Part shown: piece by piece, positions 9,184 through 47,142 of the stretch
Layout of the letters: each line of letters begins with the position of its first letter
Position numbering within the stretch: the first letter of the stretch is position 1
Source of the DNA: Escherichia coli
GTDB lineage: Bacteria > Pseudomonadota > Gammaproteobacteria > Enterobacterales > Enterobacteriaceae
Strand: one strand, 5' to 3'
Assembly: GCF_011045215.1 (NCBI RefSeq)
Contig: NZ_CP049201.1
DNA: 64,000 nucleotides
The notes under the pieces: model-generated
The model's input: only the letters and a program-made list of their open reading frames with translations
Told to the model about the DNA's origin: nothing
Databases searched by the model: none
Position numbers and translations under genes: made by a program

Positions 9184-9203
9184 CACAAACGTGAAAATCC
9201 TTG
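9184..9203. repeat. prophage attL core (20-bp direct repeat)
   Basis: AAAATCCTTGTTGATGAAAA is repeated exactly at 46009..46028; the two copies bracket the prophage. Confidence 0.65.
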
Positions 9204-9296
9204 TTGATGAAAAAAACAAAGATTTAATTTATTGATATAAAAGGATTTGTATCAGCGTATGTCCACGCGGTGACCACATTTTCGAGAGGTAGAGTA

Positions 9297-9323
9297 AGCC
9301 CGCAACATTGCGGGCTTTGTCTT
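9297..9323 (+). terminator. plus-strand hairpin and T-tract just inside the prophage left end
   Basis: agcccgcaacattgcgggct followed by ttgtctt; in the circularised phage this would lie downstream of int across attP. Confidence 0.45.
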
Positions 9324-10113
9324 ATGGTTCGATCGCCGTTTTGAGACGTTGTGTTGCTACATCAAAATAATGATCACTGGTTTCTATACCAATAAATTTG
9401 CGTCCTGCTTTCAGTGCAGCCACACCCGTTGTCCCTGACCCCATAAAAGGATCAAGGACTGTTCCACCACTATTCGCAGTCCTGACCAGCTCTGCCATAA
9501 GTTCTTCTGGCTTTCCGGTCGGGTGCATTTTCTTTGACGGGATAACCGGGAACGTCATGCAGCCGTCGAACGGACCTGAAGGCGATTTATCTAAATGGCC
9601 TTTGCTGCCCCAGACGATGTATTCACACTGATGCCGGAAATACCCCGTATGGGGTGTTCGTGACCCCCTTCCTTTGTTCCACACAATGATTCCACGCCAT
9701 GTAAAACCGCTGGCCTGAAACGCATCGGTTAAAGCTGGTAGTTGTCGCCAGTCAGTAAATACCAGGGCATAACCGCCCGGTCTGACCGCGCGGTGTGCCT
9801 GTGCCATCCATAATTGTGTCCAGTAAGCCCACGAACGGGCGTCCATGTTTTCACCCGCGAACCCATCAAAGCGGTGAAGGTTCCCGCCGTTCAGATATTT
9901 TGCATGGCTGCCCTGGTTGGTGCGTCCGGCCTTGTGTGTCGCACCCGAACTGTAAGGCGGGTCAGTGATTAAAGCATCAATGCTTTCTGGCTCAATCAGC
10001 GGCAATATTTCCAGCGCATTCCCACGACAGAGCGTGGCATTGTCAGTCTGATAAACCTTAGTGTGTTCCGGTGTATGTGCTGGTTGGTGCTGGATTGCGA
10101 TCCCCACGGTCAT
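9322..10113 (-). CDS. DNA amino-methyltransferase (N6-adenine or N4-cytosine)
   Basis: 263 aa; DPPY motif (ITDPPYSSG) precedes the AdoMet motif (FMGSGTTG), i.e. permuted motif order; AGGAG 3 nt before the ATG, lying inside the com 3' end. Confidence 0.85.
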   Translation of the reverse strand: MTVGIAIQHQPAHTPEHTKVYQTDNATLCRGNALEILPLIEPESIDALITDPPYSSGATHKAGRTNQGSHAKYLNGGNLHRFDGFAGENMDARSWAYWTQLWMAQAHRAVRPGGYALVFTDWRQLPALTDAFQASGFTWRGIIVWNKGRGSRTPHTGYFRHQCEYIVWGSKGHLDKSPSGPFDGCMTFPVIPSKKMHPTGKPEELMAELVRTANSGGTVLDPFMGSGTTGVAALKAGRKFIGIETSDHYFDVATQRLKTAIEP

Positions 10114-10255
10114 AACTCCTCATGTGTGTGGGGTGCTCGATGGCTCTCGTTATCTGGTTAAGTGTTTTGCAGCGCGGACATTTTATTTCAATGTAGTGAA
10201 ATGAGGCGCGGGCAAGTAGTTTGTTGCAATTTTTGCATCGTACATTTTGCGTCAT
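10058..10255 (-). CDS. com: Com-like zinc-finger translational regulator
   Basis: MTQNVRCKNCNKLL...IEIKCPRCKTLN resembles Mu Com as recalled (CxxC...CxxC); 3' end overlaps the methyltransferase start by about 56 nt. Confidence 0.75.
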   Translation of the reverse strand: MTQNVRCKNCNKLLARASFHYIEIKCPRCKTLNQITRAIEHPTHMRSYDRGDRNPAPTSTYTGTH

Positions 10256-10302
10256 TTGCGGCACCTCTTGTGTGGTTACTGCTGCCGATATGATAGCAAA
10301 TC

Positions 10303-10337
10303 GATCGTTTTTATCGATCGGATTTATTGCATCGATC
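10303..10337 (-). promoter_or_regulatory. cluster of three GATC sites upstream of com
   Basis: Three TCGATC motifs at 10303, 10315 and 10334 within 35 bp, 40-80 bp upstream of the com start. Confidence 0.5.
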
Positions 10338-10365
10338 TGTTATGTCTATTGCTCATGGATGGGGA

Positions 10366-10401
10366 TACCAAAAAGAAAACCCGCAGTTTTTACGCTGCGG
10401 G
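10366..10401 (-). terminator. rho-independent terminator (minus strand)
   Basis: On the minus strand cccgcag-cgtaaaaa-ctgcggg followed by ttttctttttgg. Confidence 0.6.
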
Positions 10402-10490
10402 CTTGTTGTTCATGTCTGTGAGATAGGGTGCCTTATCGACCTTACCCTGACAACCGATTGACGGGGGATTGCTCCCCCGTCGCGGTTTCC

Positions 10491-10631
10491 TTACTGCTTA
10501 CACTGTAAGAACGCCGCAAACTCCGCTCCCCAGAAGCTCATCCGTATTTCGCATAGCGAACCGTGCAGCATCCAGATGATGAGGATTGCCGTCACGCAGA
10601 ACGTGATGGCCGTAAGCGATTTTTGCGACAT
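10491..10631 (-). CDS. hypothetical 46-aa hydrophobic peptide
   Basis: MSQKSLTAITFCVTAILIIWMLHG...; AAGGAG 8 nt upstream of the ATG; below the ORF-track cutoff so read directly from sequence. Confidence 0.3.
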   Translation of the reverse strand: MSQKSLTAITFCVTAILIIWMLHGSLCEIRMSFWGAEFAAFLQCKQ

Positions 10632-10821
10632 AGCACTTGCTCCTTTTCCGGAGAGGCGCTAACCTTTCACTTGTCAAGGTAATGCGGTTAGGGCCTCGGT
10701 TAAACAGAGATGTTTTCCGGGGCCTTTCCACATCTGGCCTTCGGGTATTCCCTCCGACCATCAGCCGAAAGGCACCCGCGCGTAATCTATCGCTTTTTTG
10801 TTACTCCGGCAATTCTGCCTG

Positions 10822-11082
10822 TTAATTCTGAGGTAAAGGCAAACTCATCTGATTGTTTCCCCTGTGTGAAGCTGGCAGATCATGCCATGGGATACCTTCT
10901 GATGAGTGAACGCCGGAGGCGTGTTTCGATGTAAATTTATGGAAAGCTTCCAGTGTTGAGAAGCATACGCCGCATTCCAGGTTGTTACACTGGTAATACT
11001 TTTGCCGCACGGTGTTTGAATCATTTTCCGGACGACTGGTGCGGATACGGGCAGATGCGCCACAAAGCGGACAACGGAACAT
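10822..11082 (-). CDS. ogr: Ogr/Delta-type zinc-finger late-gene activator
   Basis: MFRCPLCGASARIRTSR...YYQCNNLECGVCF resembles the P2 Ogr Cys4 finger as recalled. Confidence 0.85.
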   Translation of the reverse strand: MFRCPLCGASARIRTSRPENDSNTVRQKYYQCNNLECGVCFSTLEAFHKFTSKHASGVHSSEGIPWHDLPASHRGNNQMSLPLPQN

Positions 11083-11124
11083 AGCGACCTCCCTTAACGT
11101 GGTGCTGTCGCTATTCTAAGTTCC

Positions 11125-12234
11125 TCACTCTGTTTCCGCTATCCATTCCGGGATTTTTGCCTCAAGCTCAAGCTGTGTGGTAAAGCCACTGTTATCAATG
11201 GTGTGCTCGGCTTTTGCAATAATCCAGTCCTGATTATCAATCTCGCTTTTAAATCCTGTTACCGTGCCATGCATTTCGGGGTAGAGTTCTGCGCGTCCGC
11301 GTGCCAGTGTGATGGAGAATGATGCGGCTCCGCGTTGTAGTTGTTGCCACTTTGCCGCCGCTGCGCGTCTTGCTGCCTGCTCGTTCTGATAAGTCTTGCG
11401 TAACACAAACACATTGCCTTCCGCGCCTTCCATATAATCACCTTCACGGCTGCTGCTTTTCTCTTTTTTCGGTTTTGGCGGTTTGCGGCGTTTCACGCTG
11501 ACTTTTTTCTTTTTCCCGTAATTAAGATCAAGCCAGTAAGCGCGTACCCCCGTATACGCCTCGCGGTCAGCAATGCGGAACTGATGGCGATCGCCGCTGC
11601 TGCGTGTGATGGCGAACGAGGGCAACGGCTGGCCCTGTGCGTTCACGCCACCGCCGGGCATGATGAATAACAGATTACCGCTTTTTACCGTGGTGATTGC
11701 GCCCAGCATTTCCGCCATGCGCGTAAGGAAGGACATGTCACTTTCTTCGGTCTGGTCGGCGTGGTCGATTTCGATATCCATCAGCATTTCGCTGATTTGC
11801 GGTTTCAGACCGTACCGATGAGCGATGGCGGATACCACACGCTCAACGGTCACATCATGCCAGGACATCTCACGTTTAACGTTAAATTCATCCCGAAAAT
11901 CTGCGCTTCTGGCTGAAACAGTCAGCCTGTCCGGCGGTCCTTCGTGAGCGATTTCATCAACAATGTAAGTGCCTTTTTCTGTCAGCGGTTCTCCTTTCCA
12001 GCCAATGAGAACCGTCAGGCGCGCGCCCCGTGGCGGTAGCTGCAACTGACCATCCGCATCATCCAGCGTGATGGTGAGCTGGTCCGCCTCAAATCCCCGG
12101 TTGTCGGTCAGTGACAGGCTCATCAGGCGCTCGGCCACGCCTGACAGCGTTTTACCCTCCGCGAGAATATCAAAATCCGGCATTTTCACGGGGTCTGTGC
12201 CCTGACTGAGCAATTGCATGGTGGTATCGGTCAT
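11125..12234 (-). CDS. D: tail protein D (gpD / late control D family)
   Basis: Listed ORF 11125..12366; GGAGGG precedes ATG at 12234 (MTDTTMQLL..); lysine-rich central segment; C-terminal NSGFTTQLELEAKIPEW as in gpD. Confidence 0.85.
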   Translation of the reverse strand: MTDTTMQLLSQGTDPVKMPDFDILAEGKTLSGVAERLMSLSLTDNRGFEADQLTITLDDADGQLQLPPRGARLTVLIGWKGEPLTEKGTYIVDEIAHEGPPDRLTVSARSADFRDEFNVKREMSWHDVTVERVVSAIAHRYGLKPQISEMLMDIEIDHADQTEESDMSFLTRMAEMLGAITTVKSGNLLFIMPGGGVNAQGQPLPSFAITRSSGDRHQFRIADREAYTGVRAYWLDLNYGKKKKVSVKRRKPPKPKKEKSSSREGDYMEGAEGNVFVLRKTYQNEQAARRAAAAKWQQLQRGAASFSITLARGRAELYPEMHGTVTGFKSEIDNQDWIIAKAEHTIDNSGFTTQLELEAKIPEWIAETE

Positions 12235-12391
12235 CTGTTCCCTCCCTGTGCGGCATGGTCGCATGTGCGTGCGGAGGGGGTTACTGCTTTTTGTTGTCGC
12301 CGTGGCGGGAGAACGGCGCAGGGGTGAGATTACGCGCGTGGTGGGTGATGATTGTTGCCGAATCATTTAACGGATACAAGGGGCTGAAGCT

Positions 12392-13576
12392 ATGAGTGAA
12401 ACTCGTTTTCATGGTGCCCGTGTTACGGAAAATACCGACCTGGTAACAGCGATTAACGATGTTGATTCCAGCGTTATCGGTATCGTGGCAACGGCGGATG
12501 ATGCGGACGCGAAGCTGTTCCCGCTGAACAAGCCCACACTGCTGACCCGCGTCAATGACGTGCTGGGAAAATGCGGGACAACGGGGACGCTTTATCGTGC
12601 GCTTAAGGCCATCGCAGACCAGGTGAGCACAAAGGTGATCGTCGTTCGCGTGGCTGAACACAAAGAAGAAGACGGAAAAACGCAGGATCAACTGGTTATC
12701 GGTGGTTCTGAATCTGACGGCAGCTATACGGGGATGTATGCGCTGCTTGTTGCAGAGCAGGATGAAAGCATCGGATACCGTCCGCGTATTCTGGCCGCGC
12801 CGGAGCTGGACACGGAGGCGGTAACAAAATCCCTGTGCGTGATTGCGGGTAAACTGCGCGCGTTTGTGTATGCCTCATGTCACGGCTGTAACACGATGGC
12901 TGAGGCGATTACCTACCGCCAGAAATTCAACGAACGTGAGGTGATGCTCTTATGGCCGGACTTCATCGCCTACAACCCGAAAAGTGGCAAAAACGAAACG
13001 TTCCCCGCGCCTGCCTATGCGTGCGGCCTTCGTGCGTACATTGACCATGAGCAGGGATGGCACAAATCACTGTCCAACGTTCCGGTTAAAAATGTGCTGG
13101 GGATGTCGAGGCATGTGTTCTGGTCGTTGCAGGCCGAAGACAGCGATGCCAACAGCCTCAACAACAAAGAAATCACGACCATTATTCGTCGCAACGGGTT
13201 CCGCTTCTGGGGCAACCGCACACCGGAAACGAACGCCTACATCTTTGAGGTGTATACCCGAACCGCACAGGTGCTGGCTGATTCAATTGCGGAAGCGCAG
13301 TTTGAAACCATCGACAGTCCACTGACGCCTGCGAACGTGAAGGATGTTATCAGTGCCATCAGGGCAAAACTGGATTCACTGGTTACTGCCGGGAAACTGA
13401 TTGGCGCGGAGTGCTGGTATGACGTGGTGGATAACAGCACCACGGATTTACGTCAGGGGCGTGTGCGTATTCGCTACAAATATACGCCTGTTCCCCCGCT
13501 GGAAGACATGGAGCTTTACCAGACGTTTACTGATGAATACTTTGAACCCGCATTTGCGGTGCTGGGAGGTGCCTGA
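12392..13576 (+). CDS. FI: contractile tail sheath protein FI
   Basis: 394 aa; strong resemblance to P2 gpFI (..FPLNKP..RNGFRFWGNRT..YTPVPPLE..). Confidence 0.92.
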   Translation: MSETRFHGARVTENTDLVTAINDVDSSVIGIVATADDADAKLFPLNKPTLLTRVNDVLGKCGTTGTLYRALKAIADQVSTKVIVVRVAEHKEEDGKTQDQLVIGGSESDGSYTGMYALLVAEQDESIGYRPRILAAPELDTEAVTKSLCVIAGKLRAFVYASCHGCNTMAEAITYRQKFNEREVMLLWPDFIAYNPKSGKNETFPAPAYACGLRAYIDHEQGWHKSLSNVPVKNVLGMSRHVFWSLQAEDSDANSLNNKEITTIIRRNGFRFWGNRTPETNAYIFEVYTRTAQVLADSIAEAQFETIDSPLTPANVKDVISAIRAKLDSLVTAGKLIGAECWYDVVDNSTTDLRQGRVRIRYKYTPVPPLEDMELYQTFTDEYFEPAFAVLGGA

Positions 13577-14088
13577 TGGCTGTGCCAAAACATCTTCGCT
13601 TTTTTACGCTGTTTGTGGATGGTGAAAACGAAGTGGGTAAGGTGACGTCCGTCACTCTGCCTAAGCTGACGCGCAAAACCGACAGCTACCGGGGTGGCGG
13701 CATGATGGGTGCGGTAAGTATTGATCTCGGTCTGGACGACTCCGCGCTTGATGCGAGCTTTGTCATGGGGGGCGCAGTTCGTGAGCTGTTCCTTAAGTAT
13801 GGCGGCACGATTGACGGCACGCTGCTGCGTTTTGCGGGTGAATACTACACCGATGCAGAAAGCGACCTGTATGAAGTCGAAATGCGCGGACGTGTGACGG
13901 AAATTGATATGGGGGAAGCCAAACAGGGCGAAGCCACATCACACACTTACGCCATTAAAAACACCTACTACAAGCTGAGTGTTAACGATCGCCCGTTGTG
14001 GGAGATTGACCTGCTGAACTTCATTTACCGGAAGGACGGCAAGGACATTGTGCCCGATCGCATCCGTTCCGCGCTTGGGCTTGGCTGA
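13576..14088 (+). CDS. FII: tail tube protein FII
   Basis: 170 aa; VTLPKLTRK..YRGGGM motif of P2 gpFII. Confidence 0.9.
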   Translation: MAVPKHLRFFTLFVDGENEVGKVTSVTLPKLTRKTDSYRGGGMMGAVSIDLGLDDSALDASFVMGGAVRELFLKYGGTIDGTLLRFAGEYYTDAESDLYEVEMRGRVTEIDMGEAKQGEATSHTYAIKNTYYKLSVNDRPLWEIDLLNFIYRKDGKDIVPDRIRSALGLG

Positions 14089-14142
14089 TAAGTAATATGC
14101 AGGCGGCGCAGTGCGTCGCCTCTGACTGAAAGGAGTTTCCTG

Positions 14143-14508
14143 ATGAAAGAGACGAAAAACATCGATACCGAAAACACGGTAGTTACTGACACTGTGAAAG
14201 AAACCAGTGAGCGTGGCGTAAAACTTACCCAACCAATTGAGCGAGGCGGCGAAAAAATCACGTATGTGGAGATCACCGGGGCTATTGAGCAGGCTGGATC
14301 TCTGCGAGATTTGTCGCTGTCTGATGTGCTGAATCTGAAAGCGGAATCCATGTTTACGCTGCTGTCACGCGTGACATCACCGCGACTGGATGAAGTGACG
14401 ATCAAAAAAATGGCATCCCGTGACTTTATTCAGTTATGTGTGGTTGCCGTAAATTTTTTGAGCGGTGCGGACTCTGGCGGGAAGAACGAACAGGCGACGG
14501 AAGCCTGA
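14143..14508 (+). CDS. E: tail assembly chaperone gpE
   Basis: 121 aa ORF immediately upstream of the tape-measure gene; overlapped by a -1 frame extension. Confidence 0.8.
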   Translation: MKETKNIDTENTVVTDTVKETSERGVKLTQPIERGGEKITYVEITGAIEQAGSLRDLSLSDVLNLKAESMFTLLSRVTSPRLDEVTIKKMASRDFIQLCVVAVNFLSGADSGGKNEQATEA

Positions 14509-14672
14509 TCACGGTTGTGTGCTTTGAGCACATAGAAGACTTTGTGGCGGATATTGCCGCCATTTTTAACTGGTCGCCCGCCGAAATCTTCATGATGACG
14601 CCCGGCGAAGTGGTTAGCTGGCGTGAGCGGGCGGCACTTCGCAGCGGGAATGCAGACAATGAAGACTCTTGA
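14436..14672 (+). CDS. E': E' extension, translated as an E+E' fusion by -1 frameshift
   Basis: ORF in the -1 frame relative to E, overlapping the E 3' end and the T 5' end; conserved arrangement in long-tailed phages. Confidence 0.7.
   Translation: MCGCRKFFERCGLWREERTGDGSLITVVCFEHIEDFVADIAAIFNWSPAEIFMMTPGEVVSWRERAALRSGNADNEDS
14454..14460 (+). other. programmed -1 ribosomal frameshift slippery site (TTTTTTG) producing E+E'
   Basis: aaa-ttt-ttt-g within gpE; the -1 frame continues ..FFERCGLWREERTGDG.. to a stop at 14672. Confidence 0.75.
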
Positions 14673-17466
14673 TATCCGGGTCGCTTTCAGCGCCGTTGAC
14701 AGGCTGACCCGGCCTGCCGAAAACGCCCGCCGCCTGATGGGGCAGTTTGGTGACTCCATCCAGCGAACGCAGGGGGCGATCAAAAATCTCGAGCGTCAGG
14801 CGCGTTCATTTGAGCGCGCCCGTGACGCTGTCAGTAAAGCGGATGCTGGCATATTGAAAGCACGACGCCAGCTTAACGCCCTTAATCAGTTACAACGCAC
14901 GGGTACAGTGCTCAGCGAAAAACAACAAAAGCTGATGCAGCAGTTAAGCACCCGGCTTGAACGCCTGAATGAATCGCGCACACGTGAAATTCAGAAAATG
15001 CGGGAGCTTGGCGGAGAGCTGAAACGCCACGGCATTTCCCTGACAGGCAGCGATAACACCATCCAGCAGGCCATCAGACGCACCGAACAGTACAACAACC
15101 AGCTTGAACGCGAACGGCAGGCGCTTGCGCGTGTAACGCGGGCGCGTGAGCGGTATTCGCGCGTGCAGGAAACCGCGGGAAAACTGAAAACAGGTGGTGC
15201 GCTGGCAATTGGTGCGGCAGCGGCGGGCGGCTATGCTGCCGGGCGTTTTTTGCAGCCTGCGATCGGGTTCGGGAAAGAGATGTCCCGCGTTCAGGCGCTG
15301 ACGCGAATCGACCAGAACAGCCCACAGTTTAAGGCGCTGCGTGAGCAGGCGTTAAAACTTGGCTCTGAAACGCAGTTCACCGCTGGAGATGCCGCCAGTG
15401 GACAGGCATTTCTTGCAATGGCTGGCTTCACACCACAGGCCATTCAGGCTGCGCTTCCCGGTGTGCTGAGCATGGCAACGGCTGGCGGTATGGATCTCGG
15501 TGAGACGGCGGATATTGGCTCAAACATCCTGACGCAGTTCGGCCTTTCTGCCGACCAGATGGACCGGGTCGGTGACACGCTCACCGCAGCGTTTACCCGT
15601 ACCAACACTGACCTTCGCGCACTGGGCGAAACCATGAAATATGCAGGTCCGGTGGCGGGCAAGCTGGGAATATCGCTGGAGCAGGCCGCAGCGATGGCGG
15701 GCGTGCTGGCGAATATGGGTATCAGGGGAAGTGATGCCGGGACGGCAATGCGTGCCAGCCTGGCTCGTCTGGCATCACCGCCAAAGGCGGCAGCAGAGGC
15801 GCTGAAAGAGCTTGGTGTGGCAGTCTCTGACGCGAACGGCAAAATGCGCCCGATGGAGGATGTGCTGGCCGACCTTTATAAAGCCACCCGCAAATACGGG
15901 GAAGTTGACCGGGTATCGTTCTTTAAGGACATTGCCGGAGAAGAGGCTTTCACATCGTTTATGGCGCTCGTTGATGCAGCGGGTGACGGTTCCTTACCTA
16001 AACTGAGAAAAGAACTTGAAGGCGCGCGCGGTGAGGCTGAACGCACAGCAAAGGTTATGGCCAACAACCTTGACGGCGATCTGAAATCACTCGGCAGTGC
16101 ATGGGAAGGGTTGCGCATCCGCATTGCAGATCTGATTGACGGTCCGCTGCGTTCTGTCACGCAGTGGCTCACACGGGTGGTATCAAGGGTGACGGCGCTG
16201 GCGCAGGCCCATCCGACACTGACGCGCCAGCTACTGATAGCAGGCGGTGCGTTGCTGGCAATGACTGCAACGGTTGGCTCGTTGTCGCTGGCTATTGGTG
16301 TGCTTGCTGGCCCGCTGGCAAAACTGCGTCTTGGTTTTTCTCTCCTGACCGGATCAATGAATGCTGTCAGGGTCCTGCCAGCACTATGGGGAATGGTGAC
16401 GGGTTCCGTTTCTTTGCTGGGAGGTGCTATCGGGGCGCTGTTCAGTCCGGTTGGTCTTATCGTGGCTGCGCTTGCCGGAGCTGCCGTTCTTATCTGGAAA
16501 TACTGGGATCCCATCAGGGCATTTTTTGCCGGGGTGTTCAGCGGGATTATGGAAAGGCTGATCCCGTTGCGCGAAACCTTTGAACAGTTTGGTCCTGTTT
16601 TTGACGCAATCGGAAGCGGGATCAGCCAGGTGTTTAACTGGTTTAAATCGCTGCTGTCACCGATGGAGTCCAGCAAGGAAACGCTGGATAAATGTACCAG
16701 TGCTGGCGAGATATTCGGTAACGTTCTTGGTGGCGCGTTACAGCTTGTTCTGACGCCTGCAAAAATGTTGCTGGATACGCTGGCGTGGATACTTGAAAAA
16801 CTCGGTGTTCTTCCGGATGAAGCGGAAAGGGCGAGAAAGAAAATCGAAGACGCACAGCGTGCGGCCATTCTTCAGGACAAGGTTGCCTTGCTTCAGGGGG
16901 ACCTGGCGAAAATCAATCCGCCGAAGCCTGTGGAAAATGGCAATGGCACCGGAGGTGATAAACCCAAAGACAACAAACCGCTCACAGACAGCAATACCGG
17001 GACGCTACGCAGACTCAGCAAAATTGCTGATAACACAGGTAAGCTGGTTGATGAGACGAAAAAACGCATTGGCCCCGGCGATATTGTCTTTAAGAACCTG
17101 CCCCGCGCACTTGCTGTTCGTGGGGAGTGGCAGGAGCGGAAGATTGCGCAGGTCAGTAAGCCTGCCCCCGCAATTAATATCACACCCGTGGTCCCGGCTC
17201 CGCTGCCTCCGGCGCTGGTCCCTGTTGTTGCGGCCAGCTCCCGCCCGGTGGCGGAGGCTATACGATCTCCAGTGGCATCAGTTCCTGTAACTTCCCGTAA
17301 CCGGGAGCCTGTTGCCTCCGGATTTGGTGGTGAAATTCATGTTCATCTGCATAACGTTGTTACGCAGAATCCCCGCGAACTGGCGAAACTAGTCGGTGAA
17401 ATGGTCAGGGCAGAAATGGAACGGCGCGCCCGTGCCGGGCGTGGCAGTTTTTACGATAAAGATTGA
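14623..17466 (+). CDS. T: tail tape measure protein T
   Basis: 947 aa, coiled-coil N-terminal region, Gly/Ala-rich hydrophobic middle; position between E/E' and U. Confidence 0.9.
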   Translation: MSGRHFAAGMQTMKTLDIRVAFSAVDRLTRPAENARRLMGQFGDSIQRTQGAIKNLERQARSFERARDAVSKADAGILKARRQLNALNQLQRTGTVLSEKQQKLMQQLSTRLERLNESRTREIQKMRELGGELKRHGISLTGSDNTIQQAIRRTEQYNNQLERERQALARVTRARERYSRVQETAGKLKTGGALAIGAAAAGGYAAGRFLQPAIGFGKEMSRVQALTRIDQNSPQFKALREQALKLGSETQFTAGDAASGQAFLAMAGFTPQAIQAALPGVLSMATAGGMDLGETADIGSNILTQFGLSADQMDRVGDTLTAAFTRTNTDLRALGETMKYAGPVAGKLGISLEQAAAMAGVLANMGIRGSDAGTAMRASLARLASPPKAAAEALKELGVAVSDANGKMRPMEDVLADLYKATRKYGEVDRVSFFKDIAGEEAFTSFMALVDAAGDGSLPKLRKELEGARGEAERTAKVMANNLDGDLKSLGSAWEGLRIRIADLIDGPLRSVTQWLTRVVSRVTALAQAHPTLTRQLLIAGGALLAMTATVGSLSLAIGVLAGPLAKLRLGFSLLTGSMNAVRVLPALWGMVTGSVSLLGGAIGALFSPVGLIVAALAGAAVLIWKYWDPIRAFFAGVFSGIMERLIPLRETFEQFGPVFDAIGSGISQVFNWFKSLLSPMESSKETLDKCTSAGEIFGNVLGGALQLVLTPAKMLLDTLAWILEKLGVLPDEAERARKKIEDAQRAAILQDKVALLQGDLAKINPPKPVENGNGTGGDKPKDNKPLTDSNTGTLRRLSKIADNTGKLVDETKKRIGPGDIVFKNLPRALAVRGEWQERKIAQVSKPAPAINITPVVPAPLPPALVPVVAASSRPVAEAIRSPVASVPVTSRNREPVASGFGGEIHVHLHNVVTQNPRELAKLVGEMVRAEMERRARAGRGSFYDKD

Positions 17467-17472
17467 GGAGTC

Positions 17473-17967
17473 ATGGCCATGATGATGATCTACGGCATGT
17501 TTGTTTTTGAGCTGCGCACGCTGCCGCATCAGCAGTTACAGCAAAACAAAAGCTGGCGGCATGTGAAAAATGAACGCGTTAACCGTTCAGCAAGCTGGCA
17601 GTATATCGGTGCAGGTGATGATCGCATCGTTCTTTCTGGTGTGCTTTATCCTGAAATTACAGGTGGCGAAGTGTCGCTGTCGCTGCTGACCACGCAGGCG
17701 TATACAGGACGACCCTGGCCTTTGATTGATGGTGTCGGGCAGATTTACGGCATGTATGTCCTGACCGGAACGAATACGACCCGTTCCGAGTTTGATCGCT
17801 ACGGTAAGGCGAAAAAGATAGAATTTTCACTGACCCTTGAACGCTGTGATGAGGATTTGCGGGAGCGCCTGCAATCCTCATCGTTCAGTGATATGCTGTC
17901 CGGCTTCAAAGATAAGGTCACATCATCCCTTAACAGCGCGGCCAGCTCCGTTAAAGGGCTGTTTTGA
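17473..17967 (+). CDS. U: tail protein U
   Basis: 164 aa; MMMIYGMFVFELRTLPHQ..SWRH resembles the P2 gpU N-terminus. Confidence 0.85.
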   Translation: MAMMMIYGMFVFELRTLPHQQLQQNKSWRHVKNERVNRSASWQYIGAGDDRIVLSGVLYPEITGGEVSLSLLTTQAYTGRPWPLIDGVGQIYGMYVLTGTNTTRSEFDRYGKAKKIEFSLTLERCDEDLRERLQSSSFSDMLSGFKDKVTSSLNSAASSVKGLF

Positions 17968-17974
17968 TTAACGC

Positions 17975-18004
17975 AAAACCGCTAATGGTCAGATTAGCGG
18001 TTTT
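17975..18004. terminator. bidirectional hairpin terminator between convergent U and invertase genes
   Basis: aaaaccgctaat-ggtcag-attagcggtttt: perfect inverted repeat flanked by an A-run and a T-run. Confidence 0.6.
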
Positions 18005-18611: not shown

Positions 18612-18647
18612 AAGCGCAAATCATGCCATGCAGGCCGGAAACGGCCA

Positions 18648-19618: not shown

Positions 19619-19620
19619 CG

Positions 19621-36509: not shown

Positions 36510-36513
36510 TGGT

Positions 36514-37473: not shown

Positions 37474-37508
37474 GTCGCTTTTCCTTATGTTGATTAATTA
37501 ATCGTTTG

Positions 37509-40373: not shown

Positions 40374-40379
40374 AGTGAT

Positions 40380-40745
40380 TTACTTCGTCATGCCATTCAG
40401 GGTGTCGCGGCAGACTGTAGCCAGCCGCTGAATTTCCAGCACGGTGTCTTCTGTGTCGGCATGGCGATGTGTGATGCGGATGCTGTCGGCAATCACATCG
40501 ACGATTGCAGAGGATGGGCGCTGGTAAATGCCAATAACGGACGGGGTGCCACCTTCAATGCGGTAAAGCCTGTAATTTCCCTCGTGGCTGTCAATCATGT
40601 AGCGACCATCAATAACAATCTTTCCGTCAGCGAGCTGCGGTACAGGCAGAGATTTCAGGTACATGTCATAACGATCACGCACGCGAGCGGCAAGATCACG
40701 TTCTGTGTTGAGCAGGTATTCAAGAAAGTCGTTGGCGAGAATCAT
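40380..40745 (-). CDS. hypothetical early protein
   Basis: 121 aa ORF immediately upstream of A on the same strand. Confidence 0.55.
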   Translation of the reverse strand: MILANDFLEYLLNTERDLAARVRDRYDMYLKSLPVPQLADGKIVIDGRYMIDSHEGNYRLYRIEGGTPSVIGIYQRPSSAIVDVIADSIRITHRHADTEDTVLEIQRLATVCRDTLNGMTK

Positions 40746-41227
40746 TGCGGCAATCCTCTTGTTACAGATGTGCGAAGGCCTCCCGCCGCAAGGTGCAGGA
40801 AAGGCCCGGAACAGGAATTAATGGAGTTTGTTTTGCTGCTGGATGAGCTGTTGAAGCTCGTGCAGATCATCCGCCAGATAGCTGAAAACAGAGGCGGAAT
40901 AAATGTTTGATAGTGCGTGGCTGCGCTCATGCCGCATATTGATGTGCATGATTTGCGCGACGCGTGATGCGCGGGAAAGTCTGCGGTTGATTTCAGTCTG
41001 GATGTGACGACGCTCCGCGATAGCGCGGTGCTGTTTGCGGTCTGCCATGGTGTGGCCTCTTTGCTCGGTGATAGAAATAACTCACCATCCAGAGTTGAGA
41101 ATCTCGGGGTGGCGAGACGTACAGGGTTCTCAACACCGGAGAGCAAAGAATCCGGCCCGACCGAAGTCGGCCCCGTACGCCCCGCCATAATTCTGACGCG
41201 AAAAAGACGTGGCAATACAGTACGCAC

Positions 41228-41248
41228 AAAAAAACCGCTTGCGCGGTT
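41228..41248 (-). terminator. rho-independent terminator (minus strand)
   Basis: On the minus strand aaccgcgcaagcggtt followed by TTTTTTT. Confidence 0.5.
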
Positions 41249-41370
41249 ATGCGCTTTGCTCTGTATCGGGTTGAGAATCCCGGCACCCGTTTTATGAGGT
41301 GCAGCGGAAATGTAACCTGACCGATTGAGGCATGGCAAGCGGTTTTTTTGTGTGTGCATGTTCTGGTTTC

Positions 41371-41670
41371 TTAGTGGTTCAGAAAAAAATCAAAAACCTT
41401 GTCAATGCGTTGCAGCAGCTCTTTCTGTATTGCTTCCGGCGTTTCCGGTTCGCCTGGCGCCTCCAACGTCGCGCAGAAATCCTCGATTTCATGACGGAGC
41501 GTCAGGCGAATGGCGAGAGGTGTGGTTTTGGCGTGCTCCAGCTGATCCAGCAGTGCCAGCACAGCAGACGGCGAGAGCATTGCGCGAAATGCCAGTAATT
41601 TTTGAGGAGTTGCCATTCGTTGCAGGGCAAATGCCAGTTCGCGTAGCTTCTGGTGGTTGGTGGTGCTCAT
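41371..41670 (-). CDS. hypothetical early protein
   Basis: 99 aa ORF in the early leftward operon. Confidence 0.5.
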   Translation of the reverse strand: MSTTNHQKLRELAFALQRMATPQKLLAFRAMLSPSAVLALLDQLEHAKTTPLAIRLTLRHEIEDFCATLEAPGEPETPEAIQKELLQRIDKVFDFFLNH

Positions 41671-41933
41671 GTTCTGGCTTCCTTCAGTAGCTGGTTAAAC
41701 ATGTGAGTAAGTGGATTGCTACACCCGAACGGCATCGGGTTTACGTGGTAAGAAGCCTGGCCTCCAGTTTTGCGAGCGCGACCACCTGTGCTGCGGTTTG
41801 TTCTGATGACTAAGCCGCCGCGCCAAAGTCGGCGTAACTCAGTATTAATAGCTGTGGTTGGGGTGTTCAATGCTGCGGCGATCTCTCCGCCGCTACACCC
41901 CGGATGAGTAGCGATGTAGTCCAGAATGGTCAT
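41667..41933 (-). CDS. hypothetical early protein, possible winged-helix DNA-binding
   Basis: 88 aa, overlapping start/stop with neighbours. Confidence 0.5.
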   Translation of the reverse strand: MTILDYIATHPGCSGGEIAAALNTPTTAINTELRRLWRGGLVIRTNRSTGGRARKTGGQASYHVNPMPFGCSNPLTHMFNQLLKEART

Positions 41934-42133
41934 CTGCGTGGCTCCTGTACCTGTCGGATAAGATTCACCCGCGCCACGTTGGTGGCGCAGAAGTAAGTGC
42001 CGTCAGTGAGGTAGATGTGGTGTGCATCCTTTTCCGAACGATGTTTGTCGATAGTGGTAATCAGGCGTTCGTCGACCTCGTATTCGCGCCCTCTGGAGGT
42101 AAAGCGAACGACGGGAAAATGCTTAATTGCCAT
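41930..42133 (-). CDS. hypothetical early protein
   Basis: 67 aa, translationally coupled within the operon. Confidence 0.45.
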   Translation of the reverse strand: MAIKHFPVVRFTSRGREYEVDERLITTIDKHRSEKDAHHIYLTDGTYFCATNVARVNLIRQVQEPRR

Positions 42134-42156
42134 TGCGCCCCCTTTGTCCAGTAACC

Positions 42157-42573
42157 CTATGCGTTAAATACGGCACGTTGCGCGTCATCAATGAATACAG
42201 CTTGAGAGCGTTCTATCAGGCGGAGATTTGTCAGAAGCTCTGACTCTTTTGTGTGGTAAGGCGTTATCAGGTATTTGCCGTGCAGTTCGGCAATAATGGT
42301 GTATTGCAGCATCATTGCTGAACCAAGAATATAAATGCAGCGTCCAATGCTGGACGGATTCATGGCTGCAACTGTTGACTGTGTTTTAAGAGTGTCGATT
42401 TCTTTGCTCTGTTCCTCAATAATTTTGGCTGCGTCAGCGGTGATTTTTGCAATGGTCAGTGCGTGAAGTGCTGCCATATGTTGGCTACGCTTCACGGCAT
42501 CTTTAGCCATTTCATCTTCCGCTTCTGATATTTTTTTTAATGTGTCGATAATGCCTTCTTCTTTTGCGTTCAT
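42157..42573 (-). CDS. hypothetical early protein
   Basis: 138 aa ORF. Confidence 0.5.
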   Translation of the reverse strand: MNAKEEGIIDTLKKISEAEDEMAKDAVKRSQHMAALHALTIAKITADAAKIIEEQSKEIDTLKTQSTVAAMNPSSIGRCIYILGSAMMLQYTIIAELHGKYLITPYHTKESELLTNLRLIERSQAVFIDDAQRAVFNA

Positions 42574-42775
42574 TTTATATCTCCGTTATTTACGTGTGCG
42601 AATACCTCCGCGAATGCGGATAGTTTTCAGGTTTTCGGGTTTAATCTGGTGTTTTGTTTAAGCTGTTATTCGTCAGTGAAAAAGCGTTCAATCTTTTTTA
42701 CTGAATGAATAATTCGCATAATCCCAATGGCGCAGGCCACCGAAATAATCAGAACAAGCCATGAGATAAATATAC

Positions 42776-43018
42776 TCATGCGATATTCCCCAGCTTATAC
42801 GGTTCAATGTGTTCCCCGCATTCTGCGGCACAGATCAGCTCGGAAAGTTCGTTAAGTGCATCCAGATCATCAGCGTAAAAAGCGACGTCATACAAACTCC
42901 GGATTGCCCTGGTCAATGAGTCACGGGCTGCACGTTCAGCATGAGCGCCTGATGCACTTAAGCGAAAATAAAATCGTTCAAGTGCTTTATTAATGAGAGT
43001 TTTATATTCTTTGCCCAT
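42776..43018 (-). CDS. hypothetical early protein
   Basis: 80 aa ORF. Confidence 0.45.
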   Translation of the reverse strand: MGKEYKTLINKALERFYFRLSASGAHAERAARDSLTRAIRSLYDVAFYADDLDALNELSELICAAECGEHIEPYKLGNIA

Positions 43019-43029
43019 CGCAACGCCCT

Positions 43030-43308
43030 TTAATCTGCTTTCTGAATTTCAGCTTCTGAATCCATACAAATAATTTCGATATAGGGTTCATCGCCATTAA
43101 CCTGACGTGCCTTTTCAGCTTCGCTAATGATTTCTCGTACGGTCTGGTACGGAAGCTCCACAGTCAGGCGCGTACCGTTCAGATAAACGTAAGTAGCTGC
43201 GTTTTTTTCTGATGGGACGACTCCATCAATAGCTGATGCGCGTAATAACAGTTCACCGCGAAAATCAATAAAACGGATAAATACACCTTGTGCATGCTCT
43301 TTGGCCAT
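43030..43308 (-). CDS. hypothetical early protein
   Basis: Listed ORF 43030..43407; plausible start at MAKEH. Confidence 0.5.
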   Translation of the reverse strand: MAKEHAQGVFIRFIDFRGELLLRASAIDGVVPSEKNAATYVYLNGTRLTVELPYQTVREIISEAEKARQVNGDEPYIEIICMDSEAEIQKAD

Positions 43309-43318
43309 AAAGCACCTG

Positions 43319-43804
43319 TTATAAATCAGCCTGTTTAATGAAATTCTGTCCGCGCAGCAGACGATCAACCGTGCGTAGCGCTTCGTACAATGTGAAATCC
43401 TGCCCAAACTGATTGTCGCCGTTGCTCAGAGCAAAAATGCGGTTTCCGGTAAATGGGTTGTGCGGGCATCTGTGAACCACGATTCCAGCTTTCTCAATCA
43501 GCCAGGTGTGTTCACCAATTTGTTTTACGGGATGGCCATCAGGTGTGGCGTGTGTTTCGCTCAAGCTGTAGCGAGAGTTGCTACGCGATGCACTGTTAGC
43601 GAAACGGTTAGCATGGTGTTCCGCCCCGTTGCGGAAGCGTTGCTGTGAAGAATTGCACTGTTGCTTCATGTCAAAAACTCCGTACCTATTTACTTCCCCG
43701 GCATAACGCCCATTTTCAAAGTAATTGCGACGAAATCCCGTGTTGTGGGGCTTGCCATTTCGCTGCTGCTTACTCATTTTTCGTGCCTCTACCCGATGAG
43801 CCAA
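43319..43804 (-). CDS. hypothetical early protein
   Basis: 161 aa basic protein; start may be the internal MSKQQ. Confidence 0.55.
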   Translation of the reverse strand: MAHRVEARKMSKQQRNGKPHNTGFRRNYFENGRYAGEVNRYGVFDMKQQCNSSQQRFRNGAEHHANRFANSASRSNSRYSLSETHATPDGHPVKQIGEHTWLIEKAGIVVHRCPHNPFTGNRIFALSNGDNQFGQDFTLYEALRTVDRLLRGQNFIKQADL

Positions 43805-43995
43805 ATAACAAACGCTGTGAGCACCGCACCAATGGTGATCGGAAAAAGACCTCTGGCATAAGCGGCGAGGTAATGAACGTTGAGAACAATAAAGCGTTCT
43901 TTTTGTCCTGTTAGCTTGCTAAGCAGATAAATCGCTATTACACCCACTTCTAGGAATACAAGGTCCAAAATGGCGCTGGTGATATTGTTGGTCAT
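43789..43995 (-). CDS. hypothetical small membrane protein
   Basis: 68 aa, two hydrophobic helices, directly downstream of cox. Confidence 0.45.
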   Translation of the reverse strand: MTNNITSAILDLVFLEVGVIAIYLLSKLTGQKERFIVLNVHYLAAYARGLFPITIGAVLTAFVIWLIG

Positions 43996-44001
43996 TTATG
44001 A

Positions 44002-44289
44002 TTAAAGCCCCAGCCACAACAACCATGCATCGCGGCGTTCTTTCGGCTGATCAAAAAACGCTTTGCGCATACCTGCGTTAAATGCTGGCAGATATACCCA
44101 GTTTTCTGATGCTCGCGTCTTCACTGAACCTGGTTTCACAAAGTCAATCGTTGGTAATTTTGCAGCGTCAATCATGGTTCTGACGGTTGATTCTTTGCGA
44201 CCAATCATCTTGGCAAATAGTTGATATGGCACCGCTTCAAGTGGATATGGTGCTACCTGAATGAACCCCTCAAGCTCTGATTCGCTCAT
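44002..44289 (-). CDS. cox: Cox-like excisionase / switch regulator
   Basis: ..VPYQLFAKMIGRKESTVRTMIDAAKLPTIDFVKPGS..ENWVYLPAFNAGMRKAFFDQPKERRDAWLLWLGL resembles P2 Cox; listed ORF 44002..44325, start taken as MSESELEG. Confidence 0.8.
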   Translation of the reverse strand: MSESELEGFIQVAPYPLEAVPYQLFAKMIGRKESTVRTMIDAAKLPTIDFVKPGSVKTRASENWVYLPAFNAGMRKAFFDQPKERRDAWLLWLGL

Positions 44290-44404
44290 TGTGGTAATCT
44301 CCTTAATTCGTCCAAATGGCCCCAAATGGCTTATATAGGCTTATTTTGGCTATTTGAATGTTTTGTATTACATGTAACCCAATAGCGTGGAGTTTAGATC
44401 ACAT
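44290..44404. promoter_or_regulatory. immunity switch region with divergent promoters and operator repeats
   Basis: Direct repeats CCAAATGGC at 44312 and 44322 between divergent cox and C. Confidence 0.5.
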
Positions 44405-44725
44405 ATGATCCATAAATCAAGCCTTGGAGAAAAACTTCGCCTGATTCGAGAGGCAGAGGGATTGTCACGTAGAGAGATGGAAGAGGTGACAGGGGTATCT
44501 CAAAACAATCTCAAAAATTATGAAATATTGGGAAGAATGATACCTGGAGAAACGCTACTCCTGATTTTGAATCATCCTCGTTTTCGGAAGTATTCGGATT
44601 GGGTGATGTTTAATCAAACTAATGCTGCGACGGGGCAGATTGCTCCGCCTCTCTCTCTTGATGGCTTCTTCGATTCGGAGGGCGATCAGGTTTCAACCGA
44701 AACAAACCAAAAATCACCCCGCTAA
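44405..44725 (+). CDS. C: immunity repressor C (HTH)
   Basis: ..LRLIREAEGLSRREMEEVTGVSQNNLKNYE.. HTH and ..TGQIAP.. resemble P2 C; listed ORF 44387..44725. Confidence 0.78.
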   Translation: MIHKSSLGEKLRLIREAEGLSRREMEEVTGVSQNNLKNYEILGRMIPGETLLLILNHPRFRKYSDWVMFNQTNAATGQIAPPLSLDGFFDSEGDQVSTETNQKSPR

Positions 44726-44821
44726 GGCCAGAAAACTGGTTAGACCTGCTCTTTGTCTGGTCTGATTATTGCTGGAAAGAGGCTGGAGAAATTGTAGAGC
44801 GGTTCATTGGAGGGCTTCGCA

Positions 44822-45826
44822 ATGTCAATTAAGAAGCTCGAAGATGGTCGTTATTTGCTGGACATCAGGCCGAACGGACGCAAGGGAAAGCGCGTGCGTA
44901 AGGTATTTGACAAAAAATCGGTAGCGGTGGCCACTGAACGCTACATCATGGCGAACGCTGAAAAGCGGGAATATATACAGGGCTACCGTGATCGCCGAAC
45001 GCTAAATGATTTGCTTGAGTTGTGGTGGATGTATCACGGTCAACACAGGCGTAAGGCGGAAGAAGACCGAAAACAACTGCGCAACATAATCAATGAGCTT
45101 GGCGCTGATATGCAGGCTGTGGATCTTGATAAGCTGAAAATTATCGCGTGGCGTTCTCAAAAGATAGCTGATGGATTGAAACCGTCATCTGCTAACAGAT
45201 ACATGAATCGGTTATCCGGAATGTTTACCGTACTGAAGAAAATAGGCCTCTGGGATGCAGAACATCCGGTAAGGGGAATTTCTATTCTTTATGTATCTCC
45301 ACGAGAAATGGCTTTCCTGTCCCAGAAGGAAGTGGCGCTATTGCTCGATACACTGGAGGGCGATTACTGGCGTGTTGCGCTTTTGTGTTTAAGCACGGGG
45401 GCGCGCTGGAGTGAAGCTTGTAAGCTTCGTGGTGAACAGATAGTTCATAACCGTGTAACGTTTCTTGAAACCAAAAATGGCCGAAAGAGAACAGTGCCAA
45501 TTTCGCAGGCAGTTTGTGAGGCGATCAAAACCAGAGAAACAGGCGGCTTGTTTGAGGTGAAGTACCGGGAATTCTGCTTGGCGCTGAAAAGAGTTAAGCC
45601 CGATTTGCCAAAAGGCCAGGCTGCACATGTGCTGCGGCATACGTTCGCCAGCCATTTTGTGATGAACGGAGGAAACATTATTGCGCTTCAGAAGATTCTT
45701 GGCCACGCAACCATTCAGCAAACAATGGCATATGCACATTTTGCACCGGATTACCTGCAGGATGCGGTGGCCCTTAATCCGCTGAAAGGTGGCGTGAGTG
45801 TCCACGCAGTGTCCACGGGGGATTAA
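44822..45826 (+). CDS. int: tyrosine integrase (P2 Int family)
   Basis: MSIKKLEDGRYLLDIRPNGRKGKRVRK.. N-terminus and C-terminal ..HVLRHTFASHFVMNGGNIIALQKILGHATIQQTMAYAHFAPDYLQDA.. resemble P2 Int. Confidence 0.93.
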   Translation: MSIKKLEDGRYLLDIRPNGRKGKRVRKVFDKKSVAVATERYIMANAEKREYIQGYRDRRTLNDLLELWWMYHGQHRRKAEEDRKQLRNIINELGADMQAVDLDKLKIIAWRSQKIADGLKPSSANRYMNRLSGMFTVLKKIGLWDAEHPVRGISILYVSPREMAFLSQKEVALLLDTLEGDYWRVALLCLSTGARWSEACKLRGEQIVHNRVTFLETKNGRKRTVPISQAVCEAIKTRETGGLFEVKYREFCLALKRVKPDLPKGQAAHVLRHTFASHFVMNGGNIIALQKILGHATIQQTMAYAHFAPDYLQDAVALNPLKGGVSVHAVSTGD

Positions 45827-45984
45827 TTTTATATAGCCTGAAACGGCTTAAAGGGCGATACTGAATAACAATTTTTCAGTATTGCCCGTCTAAATGGTTA
45901 TGTTGTTATCTGTATGATTATGAATGTTTTTTCAGATTAAACAGCAGTTTGCAAATGGGCGTTTGTTAATAAAGGAGCCTTAGA

Positions 45985-47142
45985 TTGTCAGAGACTGAAA
46001 AAGGGTTAAAAATCCTTGTTGATGAAAATATGCCTTATGCCCGCGACTTATTTAGCCGTTTGGGTGAGGTGATCGCGGTTCCCGGGCGTCCAATCCCCGT
46101 CGCTCAACTGGCAGACGCGGATGCGCTGATGGTGCGTTCGGTCACGAAAGTGAATGAATCTTTGCTGGCAGGAAAACCCATTAAATTTGTTGGCACTGCC
46201 ACTGCGGGGACCGACCATGTCGATGAAGCATGGTTGAAGCAGGCGGGAATTGGTTTTTCCGCTGCACCTGGCTGTAATGCGATTGCGGTGGTGGAATATG
46301 TTTTCTCCTCCCTGCTGATGCTTGCCGAACGCGATGGATTTTCACTGCACGAGCGTACCGTGGGGATCGTAGGCGTTGGTAACGTTGGTCGGCGTTTACA
46401 GGCACGACTGGAAGCGTTAGGGATTAAAACCTTACTTTGCGATCCGCCTCGCGCCGACTGTGGGGATGAGGGTGATTTCCGCTCGCTGGATGAGTTAGTC
46501 CAGCGCGCGGATATTCTGACTTTCCATACGCCACTCTTCAAAGACGGGCCGTACAAAACGCTGCATCTGGCGGATGAAAAACTGATCCGTAGCCTGAAGC
46601 CCGGAGCGATTCTGATTAACGCCTGCCGTGGCGCAGTCGTCGATAATACCGCGCTGCTGACCTGCCTGAATGAAGGCCAGAAGTTAAGCGTAGTGCTGGA
46701 TGTCTGGGAAGGCGAACCGGAACTAAATGTGGAATTGCTGACAAAAGTGGATATCGGCACGCCGCATATTGCAGGCTATACCCTGGAAGGTAAAGCACGC
46801 GGTACTACGCAAGTGTTTGAAGCCTATAGCAAGTTTATTGGGCATGAACAGCACGTTGCGCTGGATACATTACTGCCCGCGCCAGAGTTTGGTCGCATTA
46901 CTCTGCATGGACCGCTCGATCAACCGACGCTGAAAAAGCTGGTGCATTTGGTGTATGATGTGCGCCGCGATGACGCACCGTTGCGTAAAGTCGCCGGGAT
47001 ACCGGGTGAGTTCGATAAACTGCGCAAAAACTATCTTGAGCGCCGTGAATGGTCATCTCTGTATGTAATTTGTGATGACGCCAGTGCGGCATCATTGCTG
47101 TGTAAACTGGGTTTTAACGCCGTTCATCATCCGGCACGTTAA
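45985..47142 (+). CDS. pdxB: erythronate-4-phosphate dehydrogenase (start supplied by prophage-derived sequence)
   Basis: 385 aa; body matches remembered PdxB from [11 protein letters not shown] onward; first 8 codons (TTG start with AGGAG upstream, MSETEKGL) lie in phage-derived DNA left of the att core. Confidence 0.88.
46009..46028. repeat. prophage attR core (20-bp direct repeat)
   Basis: AAAATCCTTGTTGATGAAAA, identical to 9184..9203; lies within the first codons of pdxB. Confidence 0.65.

Follow-up and report, generated by a model that had tools for sequence, protein, structure and literature searches.

The analyzed stretch of E. coli DNA (64,000 nt, hereafter the window) carries a P88-like prophage integrated in the first codons of pdxB, with PdxB very probably made as a 385-aa protein from a phage-borne TTG codon and the gene transcribed from phage DNA. 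This reading is supported and has been known since 2019, because Citrobacter rodentium phage phiSM, which has the same integration module, was described in that year; phiSM integrates at the same pdxB site in K-12, and a TTG with a Shine-Dalgarno (SD) sequence was noted there (Magaziner et al., 2019, J Bacteriol, PMC6456863). To that description we add an occupancy of ~5.6% among complete E. coli genomes, an inconsistency in RefSeq start assignments, and a misfit between the published promoter and SD sequence.

Attachment Sites and Prophage Boundaries

A repeat search identified AAAATCCTTGTTGATGAAAA as the 20-bp core shared by the two ends of the prophage. It occurs on the + strand at 9194-9213 (attL) and at 46009-46028 (attR), the latter copy spanning pdxB codons 2-7 and two bases of codon 8. 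Exactly two copies are present in the window even when two mismatches are tolerated. They lie 36,815 bp apart and are the only exact direct repeat of at least 16 nt that flanks the prophage. A sequence-only reading of the window had placed the core at both ends; its right-hand position, 46009, was accurate, but its left-hand position, 9184, fell 10 nt from the true start. A chance repeat, or wrongly drawn boundaries, was ruled out by the two copies against a count of zero in shuffled sequence, by the contiguous empty site described below, and by the absence of any other bracketing repeat in the search.

Empty sites and junctions were counted in 5426 complete E. coli genomes. When attB was rebuilt from the host flanks, the comparison with prophage-free genomes bore out the proposed site, giving a contiguous flk-pdxB region with one core copy in 5122 of the 5426. 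The int-pdxB junction was found in 299 genomes and the 182-nt phage arm beside pdxB in 303 (~5.6%), all with at least 96% identity. Since the rebuilt site is contiguous and the junction or arm recurs in 299-303 genomes, the repeat copies are confirmed as the true att sites. An identical core stands at both ends, a single copy is present in empty sites (including that of K-12), and a tyrosine-recombinase gene adjoins one att site, int being next to attR. An Rfam search of both att junctions gave no match.

The Prophage and Its Integration Module

The prophage body (9214..46008) was characterized from phage nucleotide matches, PHROG matches, and ORFs, and appears from its sequence to be a complete, 36.8-kb member of the P2 family, with all long ORFs in the ORF list intact. 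It is nearly identical to P88, P884B11, and phiSM, all three classified as Xuanwuvirus (Peduoviridae), and this genome-wide nucleotide similarity places it in the same genus. The structural and late half aligned with P88 at 97% identity over 94% coverage and with the same gene order, whereas the P88 match to the early query stopped at position 9,683 of 12,009 (61% coverage of the query), leaving the integrase and the int-proximal arm outside. P88 was also unmatched to the attL-proximal 1.1 kb of the prophage, which includes a methyltransferase gene. The early half aligned with phiSM at 93.9% identity over 84% coverage. PHROG matches included a tail protein, a tail fibre, and a chaperone and, together with the matched phage records and the RefSeq annotation of KSC9, they showed P2-type late genes and a cox/C-int switch.

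In the switch region, a cox-family gene (44002..44289, - strand) was assigned from the RefSeq annotation of the KSC9 locus, which is 99.9% identical. It is followed by a further feature on the + strand (44405..44725) and by the tyrosine integrase gene, int (44822..45826, + strand), which is named "phage integrase" in RefSeq and whose stop codon lies 158 nt 5′ of the TTG. The int product matched NCBIfam tyrosine-recombinase models with scores under the equivalog cut-offs, and was at least 98% identical among all pdxB-type elements found in IMG/VR. A pattern scan found paired 9-mers of one motif with an 11-bp period on both phage arms: GTGTCCACG occurs twice on the P arm, within the 3′ end of int (45798..45817, + strand), and ATGTCCACG and GTGACCACA occur on the P′ arm (9259..9278, + strand). 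By analogy with P2, these arm-type repeats would be bound by Int. The scan also gave one match to the IHF consensus, a candidate site in the P′ arm (TATCAATAAATTA; 9225..9237, - strand). P2 has the same layout, with cox, C and int, and attP in this order, int directed toward attP, paired arm repeats, and a tyrosine integrase, but its core and target differ. We know of no preferred P2 site that lies within the 5′ end of a coding gene.

The Detached Start of pdxB

At the left end, the host gene flk (8097..9092, - strand), recognized from the ORF list and from its annotation in the empty-site genome CB9615, is divergent from pdxB. The intergenic region that follows (9093..9190, + strand) is identical to that of K-12 MG1655 and presumably holds the native pdxB promoter and leader; its best sigma-70-like match is TTCGCA-17-GATTAT (9116-9144; 8/12). 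The GTG at 9191-9193 is immediately 5′ of the attL core; prophage-free genomes have pdxB annotated from this codon, in line with what had been proposed from the sequence. Translation from this codon gives GTG plus 13 codons (MKILVDEKNKDLIY*; 9191..9235, + strand) that run into phage DNA. The native GTG and intergenic region remain at attL, and pdxB is indeed cut off from them by 36.8 kb.

In the favored account, the phage entered by way of its tyrosine integrase, which recombined its 20-bp attP core with the identical stretch over codons 2-8 of pdxB. One core copy remains at attL together with the GTG and the presumed native promoter region, giving a dead-end ORF of 14 codons; beyond it lies a strong hairpin that resembles a terminator (9296..9317; 9-bp stem with 6 GC pairs; fold energy -18.8 kcal/mol). 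Judged from its sequence, this hairpin would stop transcription that enters the prophage from the native pdxB promoter. The same hairpin also lies 3′ of the methylase gene.

The Phage Start Cassette and the Predicted Hybrid PdxB

At the right end, recombination would join the int-proximal attP arm to the remainder of pdxB, bringing with it a translation-initiation cassette. The arm carries an AGGAG (45973..45977, + strand), a 7-nt spacer, and a TTG followed by the codons for SETEKGL (45985..46008, + strand), and MSETEKGL is in frame with KILVDEN and fused to K2 of PdxB, which bears out the AGGAG, TTG, and MSETEKGL of the sequence-only reading. The resulting ORF (45985..47142, + strand) encodes a predicted 385 aa compared to 378 in the native protein, and the public database protein with this exact sequence is PdxB (WP_164475579.1); searching contigs for an exact match to this protein returned no location. 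An in-frame TAA at 45970 forms the upstream end of the frame, so the TTG is the only start candidate 5′ of the core. Given that the attR arm carries this cassette, lysogens would be expected to produce a PdxB in which Met1 is replaced by MSETEKGL, with the fold whole and the seven added residues forming a flexible tail.

The annotation of the fused gene is inconsistent in RefSeq, where it is given as either 385 aa or a truncated 370 aa. The shorter protein would begin at an in-frame ATG, native codon 9 (46030..46032, + strand), and its transcript could arise at a hybrid promoter-like site, TTGTCA (45985)-17 nt-AAAAAT (46013). This start is annotated by PGAP in KSC9 and five other lysogens and is the RefSeq choice in about two thirds of the lysogens sampled, and the one + strand site near the junction that resembles a sigma-70 promoter at 9/12 positions is located there. 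We nevertheless regard it as improbable. Predicted SD:anti-SD pairing was -7.9 kcal/mol for the TTG, -3.8 kcal/mol for the native GTG, and +0.4 kcal/mol for the ATG, so that, among the three candidates, the predicted ribosome-binding site is strongest at the TTG, and the ATG is left without SD pairing. The region contained 2 promoter-like matches against 3.1 expected from shuffled sequence, i.e., fewer than by chance. Starting at the ATG would also remove a conserved strand and motif: the PdxB structures of Salmonella, Vibrio, and Pseudomonas share a conserved (K/R)-I-L-x-D-E-N that begins at residue 2, and an AF2 model of the hybrid shows coil at residues 1-7 and β1 at residues 8-13 (LKILVD). 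Crystallised Salmonella and Vibrio PdxB constructs carried 3-6 additional N-terminal residues. A truncated enzyme is, moreover, hard to square with the finding that phiSM lysogens grow on minimal medium as the wild type does. SD strength, conservation of KILVDEN, and the modeled β1 strand favor the TTG, which we infer to be the PdxB start in the lysogen. Another proposal is that integration inactivates pdxB, as in negative lysogenic conversion, leaving lysogens in need of external vitamin B6 or bypass pathways. Although the gene is severed from its start codon and intergenic region, we consider such a loss highly improbable: MG1655 lysogens of phiSM match the wild type on M9 glucose and the phiSM pdxB fusion is functional, its use of the TTG being inferred in that study (PMC6456863); the ORF is intact in the window and in inspected lysogens and is never flagged as a pseudogene; and 5.6% of the complete genomes, which come from many sources, have the site filled.

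Transcription of the Hybrid Gene

With a functional hybrid PdxB as the preferred outcome, its mRNA would have to come from phage DNA, most likely by read-through from the lysogenic operon (Pc, C, int), which is constitutive, points at pdxB, and is not followed by a canonical terminator. Both C and int are transcribed from Pc in P2 (PMC3936717). A terminator scan called nothing terminator-like in the interval that separates int from the TTG, and a sigma-70 consensus scan of the same interval found no match upstream of the SD sequence; both are consistent with read-through from int. A promoter within the phage arm has instead been proposed for phiSM (-35 TTGCAA, -10 TAAAGG; PMC6456863), and the window contains this sequence too. 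However, the -10 proposed there (45970-45975) agrees with TATAAT at no more than 3/6 positions, is separated from the -35 by only 15 nt, and shares bases with the SD sequence. Transcripts starting ~7 nt downstream of it would lack the SD sequence, making the two published predictions incompatible. A weak 8/12 match farther upstream (TCTAAA-18-TATGAT; 45889-45918) is at least as good by score as the candidate native promoter and may add to transcription. On balance, we favor read-through from the C-int operon on sequence grounds, and a dedicated arm promoter seems rather unlikely to be what drives pdxB.

A hairpin with a 13-bp stem and no U-tract (45853..45887, + strand; -21 kcal/mol) is located directly 3′ of int. 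It was not called terminator-like, but it is stable enough that it could attenuate read-through and is possibly a weak attenuator. A C-to-T change in phiSM preserves this stem as a G-U pair.

Downstream of pdxB are usg and an ORF that is truA by position (47208..49033, + strand); the operon behind pdxB, including usg, has been described (PMC6358828). A vitamin B6 gene, and probably this operon as well, would rely on phage DNA for expression.

Relation to Known Systems

The prophage shares with phiSM its genus, the core, the in-frame TTG, the SD sequence, and the fusion frame, and the int-proximal arms differ by 1 nt. It differs in being a natural lysogen of E. coli and a distinct mosaic relative, with other cargo near attL and 84-89% coverage. 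For phiSM, the core was reported as 17 bp and the pdxB start as ATG (PMC6456863), whereas the sequences give a 20-bp core and a GTG, in K-12 too.

A housekeeping gene is likewise kept functional when phage 21 or e14 integrates in icd, where a homologous copy on the phage takes the place of the displaced 3′ end. The pdxB case differs in that the 5′ end is exchanged for unrelated codons and a new ribosome-binding site, and the promoter is lost as well. Restoration of the icd type, by duplication of the gene end, was rejected: no homologous copy of the displaced pdxB end was found in the phage arm, the sequence upstream of the core is dissimilar to the pdxB leader and start, and the 8 phage codons are unrelated to pdxB. 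Having an att site at the 5′ end of a housekeeping gene is feasible for this phage because it supplies a ribosome-binding site and a start codon itself.

Conservation of the Int-Proximal Arm

In an alignment of 10 copies that included five of the most divergent lysogens, the SD sequence, TTG, and 8 codons were invariant, with variation confined to positions upstream. On the attL-side arm, sequence immediately past the core was highly variable. That the 41 nt adjoining the core do not vary in this small sample is not necessarily a sign of selection for translation, since core binding by the integrase or recent common descent of the int-arm module could account for it, and a selection test on the 8 codons was underpowered, as the module is at least 96% identical everywhere. 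Two exact-pattern scans of species-representative genomes found neither the arm-core junction nor the arm. Among integrase relatives in IMG/VR, nearly all contigs ended at the int stop codon and, being trimmed there, yielded no extra diversity of the int-proximal arm; relatives at 80-88% identity had different downstream sequence without the core, and a scan of IMG/VR for the core matched attL ends almost solely. The interval from int to the TTG has neither a terminator nor a good promoter, and the SD-TTG-codon block is invariant while the opposite arm varies; these features leave room for the speculative and rather doubtful view that the int-proximal attP arm is a selected "gene-repair cassette," rewiring pdxB and the downstream usg-truA-dedA genes onto the immunity operon. 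If so, vitamin B6 synthesis and tRNA pseudouridylation would track lysogeny, dropping when Cox shuts off Pc at induction.

Prophage Boundaries and Occupancy of the pdxB Site

The 64-kb window holds exactly two copies of the 20-bp direct repeat that ends the prophage (AAAATCCTTGTTGATGAAAA; hereafter the core), one at 9194-9213 (attL, on the flk side) and one at 46009-46028 (attR, inside pdxB). No additional copies were found in the window at ≤2 mismatches, nor any in 100 shuffles. Between 8500 and 47000 the core was the only bracketing exact direct repeat of ≥16 nt (spacing 36,815 bp), and comparison of the flanks showed that identity ends abruptly at either side of it. Of 5426 complete E. coli genomes, 5122 hold the empty site, as rebuilt from the left host flank, the core and the right host flank (1,026 bp), without interruption; identity reaches 99.7%, and flk and pdxB are annotated there. 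The K-12 sequence surrounding the core is identical to that of the window. The int-pdxB junction (44700-46100) was found in 299 genomes of this set, and the 182 nt of phage DNA between int and the attR core (the arm) in 303 (5.6%), every copy being chromosomal, full length and ≥96% identical. An earlier sequence-only reading had placed a prophage in the first codons of pdxB, bounded by a core expected also in the prophage-free flk-pdxB junction. The contiguous empty site and the junction and arm counts confirm this observation, including the right core at 46009, apart from a 10-bp slip in the left core, which had been put at 9184 rather than 9194.

Start Codons and the Predicted Hybrid PdxB

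The GTG preceding the left core (9191) is indeed the original pdxB start, as had been proposed: the 378-aa pdxB of empty sites begins at exactly this codon in O55:H7 CB9615 and K-12 MG1655. At attR, phage DNA upstream of the core contains an in-frame TAA (45970), AGGAG (45973-45977), 7 bases and a TTG (45985). Translation from this TTG gives MSETEKGL and runs on into PdxB, so the phage-supplied SD, start and eight codons of the sequence-only reading hold, and the hybrid ORF (45985-47142) encodes 385 aa. Calculated SD:anti-SD energies were -7.9 kcal/mol for the phage TTG, -3.8 kcal/mol for the native GTG, which now opens a dead-end ORF at attL, and +0.4 kcal/mol for the internal ATG at 46030 (native codon 9), which would yield 370 aa.

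The motif (K/R)-I-L-x-D-E-N is conserved from residue 2 in PdxB structures of Salmonella, Vibrio and Pseudomonas, with 3-6 additional N-terminal residues in the constructs used to crystallise the Salmonella and Vibrio enzymes. The structure predicted for the 385-aa protein from a shallow alignment has a mean pLDDT of 75; it shows coil over residues 1-7, followed by the first β-strand at residues 8-13 (LKILVD). Given this conservation and the modelled strand, the TTG product is predicted to keep the entire fold plus a short flexible tail, and the ATG product would lack a conserved strand. In an alignment of 10 arm copies, five of them drawn from among the most divergent lysogens sampled, plus Citrobacter rodentium phage phiSM, the SD, TTG and eight codons were invariant, and the variation (substitutions and T-run indels) lay upstream of this block. 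The invariance is no more than suggestive: the module is uniform and young, and the core-adjacent stretch may also be under constraint from the integrase. Lys2 of native PdxB becomes Asn in one lysogen (L129, strain Z1323HEC0300), through an AAA to AAC change in the attR core (aligned to window 46011).

RefSeq/PGAP does not annotate the fused gene consistently among lysogens: some have 385 aa from the TTG (e.g., the O55:H7 lysogen DEC5A), and others, including KSC9, whose locus is near-identical (99.9%) to the window's, have 370 aa from the ATG. In a 40-genome lysogen sample, the pdxB CDS reached back into the arm in approximately one third (TTG start, 385 aa) and began at native codon 9 in the remainder (370 aa); starts were inspected individually in loci L001 and L127-L132 (window 45985-46032). 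Both forms are present in protein databases.

Transcription of the Fused Gene

The native flk-pdxB intergenic region remains at attL, ahead of a remnant ORF of 14 codons (MKILVDEKNKDLIY*) and a strong terminator-like hairpin at 9296-9317. Transcripts from this region would traverse the remnant and then reach the hairpin. At attR, the stretch from the int stop (45826) to the SD gave neither a sigma-70-like site (consensus scan) nor a terminator-like site; a stable 13-bp hairpin after int (45853-45887, -21 kcal/mol) is without a U-tract. Because the Pc promoter of P2 drives a lysogenic operon holding both C and int (PMC3936717), read-through from C-int would be the simplest source of pdxB mRNA. 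Alternatively, a weak promoter inside the arm may transcribe pdxB. A looser promoter scan at attR gave a best match of 8/12, and for phiSM a putative -35 and -10 have been noted together with the in-frame phage TTG and AAGGAG (Magaziner et al., 2019; PMC6456863). The -10 proposed there (TAAAGG) overlaps the proposed SD and, therefore, a transcript from it would be without that SD. We consider C-int read-through and an arm promoter about equally probable.

Relation to Phage phiSM

The phiSM arm differs from that of the window by 1 nucleotide and phiSM integration in pdxB has been published, so the interpretation made from the window is supported and already known, an independent rediscovery of the phiSM case; the window comes from a naturally occurring E. 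coli lysogen that carries a mosaic relative. Growth of MG1655(phiSM) on M9 glucose was wild-type-like (PMC6456863). By sequence, attP-attB identity is 20 bp and the K-12 pdxB start is GTG, as compared with 17 bp and ATG in Magaziner et al. (2019; PMC6456863). Beyond that paper, our literature search found none linking pdxB with phage integration. Gene-restoring integration of the icd type supplies a homologous copy of a 3′ end, whereas here a 5′ end receives unrelated codons together with a new ribosome-binding site from the phage. The additions made here are modest, namely the 5.6% site occupancy in complete E. coli genomes and the inconsistent RefSeq annotation of fused pdxB.

Identity and Other Features of the Prophage

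The 36.8 kb between the cores matches Xuanwuvirus phages (Peduoviridae, P2 family): P88 over the late half (94% coverage, 97% identity), phiSM over the early half (84% coverage, 93.9% identity), and also P884B11, PhiR44_2 and Chuche. Its long ORFs are intact, and PHROG matches include a tail protein, a tail-fibre fragment, a tail-fibre chaperone, partition proteins and a DNA methyltransferase. Adjoining attR are a cox-family gene (-), a C-type helix-turn-helix repressor (+) and a tyrosine integrase (+), the latter two facing pdxB. The int-proximal arm holds a pair of arm-type repeats (2x GTGTCCACG, 11-bp period; 45798-45817), and the attL-side arm holds a similar pair (ATGTCCACG / GTGACCACA; 9259-9278) and an IHF-consensus match (9225-9237). 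This is the arrangement expected of a P2-type attP, with the repeats and the IHF match as putative protein-binding sites.

The attL-side arm is mosaic throughout in E. coli genomes, in contrast to the uniform int-side arm of all 303 lysogens. Among 42 viral contigs (IMG/VR loci L005-L046), the 10-12 nt directly past the core (window 9214-9225) came in at least 12 variants. The first gene inside attL encodes a type II-like DNA methyltransferase (9322-10113, -); this region is variable cargo: phiSM has a hypothetical protein and TagO there, and P88 lacks a match to the first 1.1 kb.

An apparent invertible tail-fibre segment (17997-22874), resembling the Mu G and P1 C host-range switches, comprises a serine-recombinase (invertase-family) gene (17997-18611, -), 62-nt inverted repeats (18644-18705 and 21685-21746), and a tail-fibre C-terminal fragment that lacks a promoter, together with its chaperone (18875-20154, +), facing the fibre and chaperone genes that are expressed (20183-22874, -). 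In the early region, Rfam matches above the gathering score to C4 antisense RNA (41105-41192, -; 78.5 bits) and the Hfq-binding RNA isrK (41228-41302, -; 63.1 bits) hint at an antisense immunity element of the P1/P7 type in this P2-family phage. Plasmid-type partition genes (36198-37473, -; PHROG "partition protein" families), which the annotations of phiSM and P88 call parM, are present in this chromosome-integrating phage. Between them and the portal gene lies a low-GC island (34147-36111, +; 38.8% GC over 34001-36000 vs. ~54% in the surroundings), possibly a hotspot for cargo or defence genes. Its three ORFs (130, 165 and 280 aa) matched only phrog_2284, phrog_12528 and, weakly, Csx27 (E=6e-6), with no function assigned.
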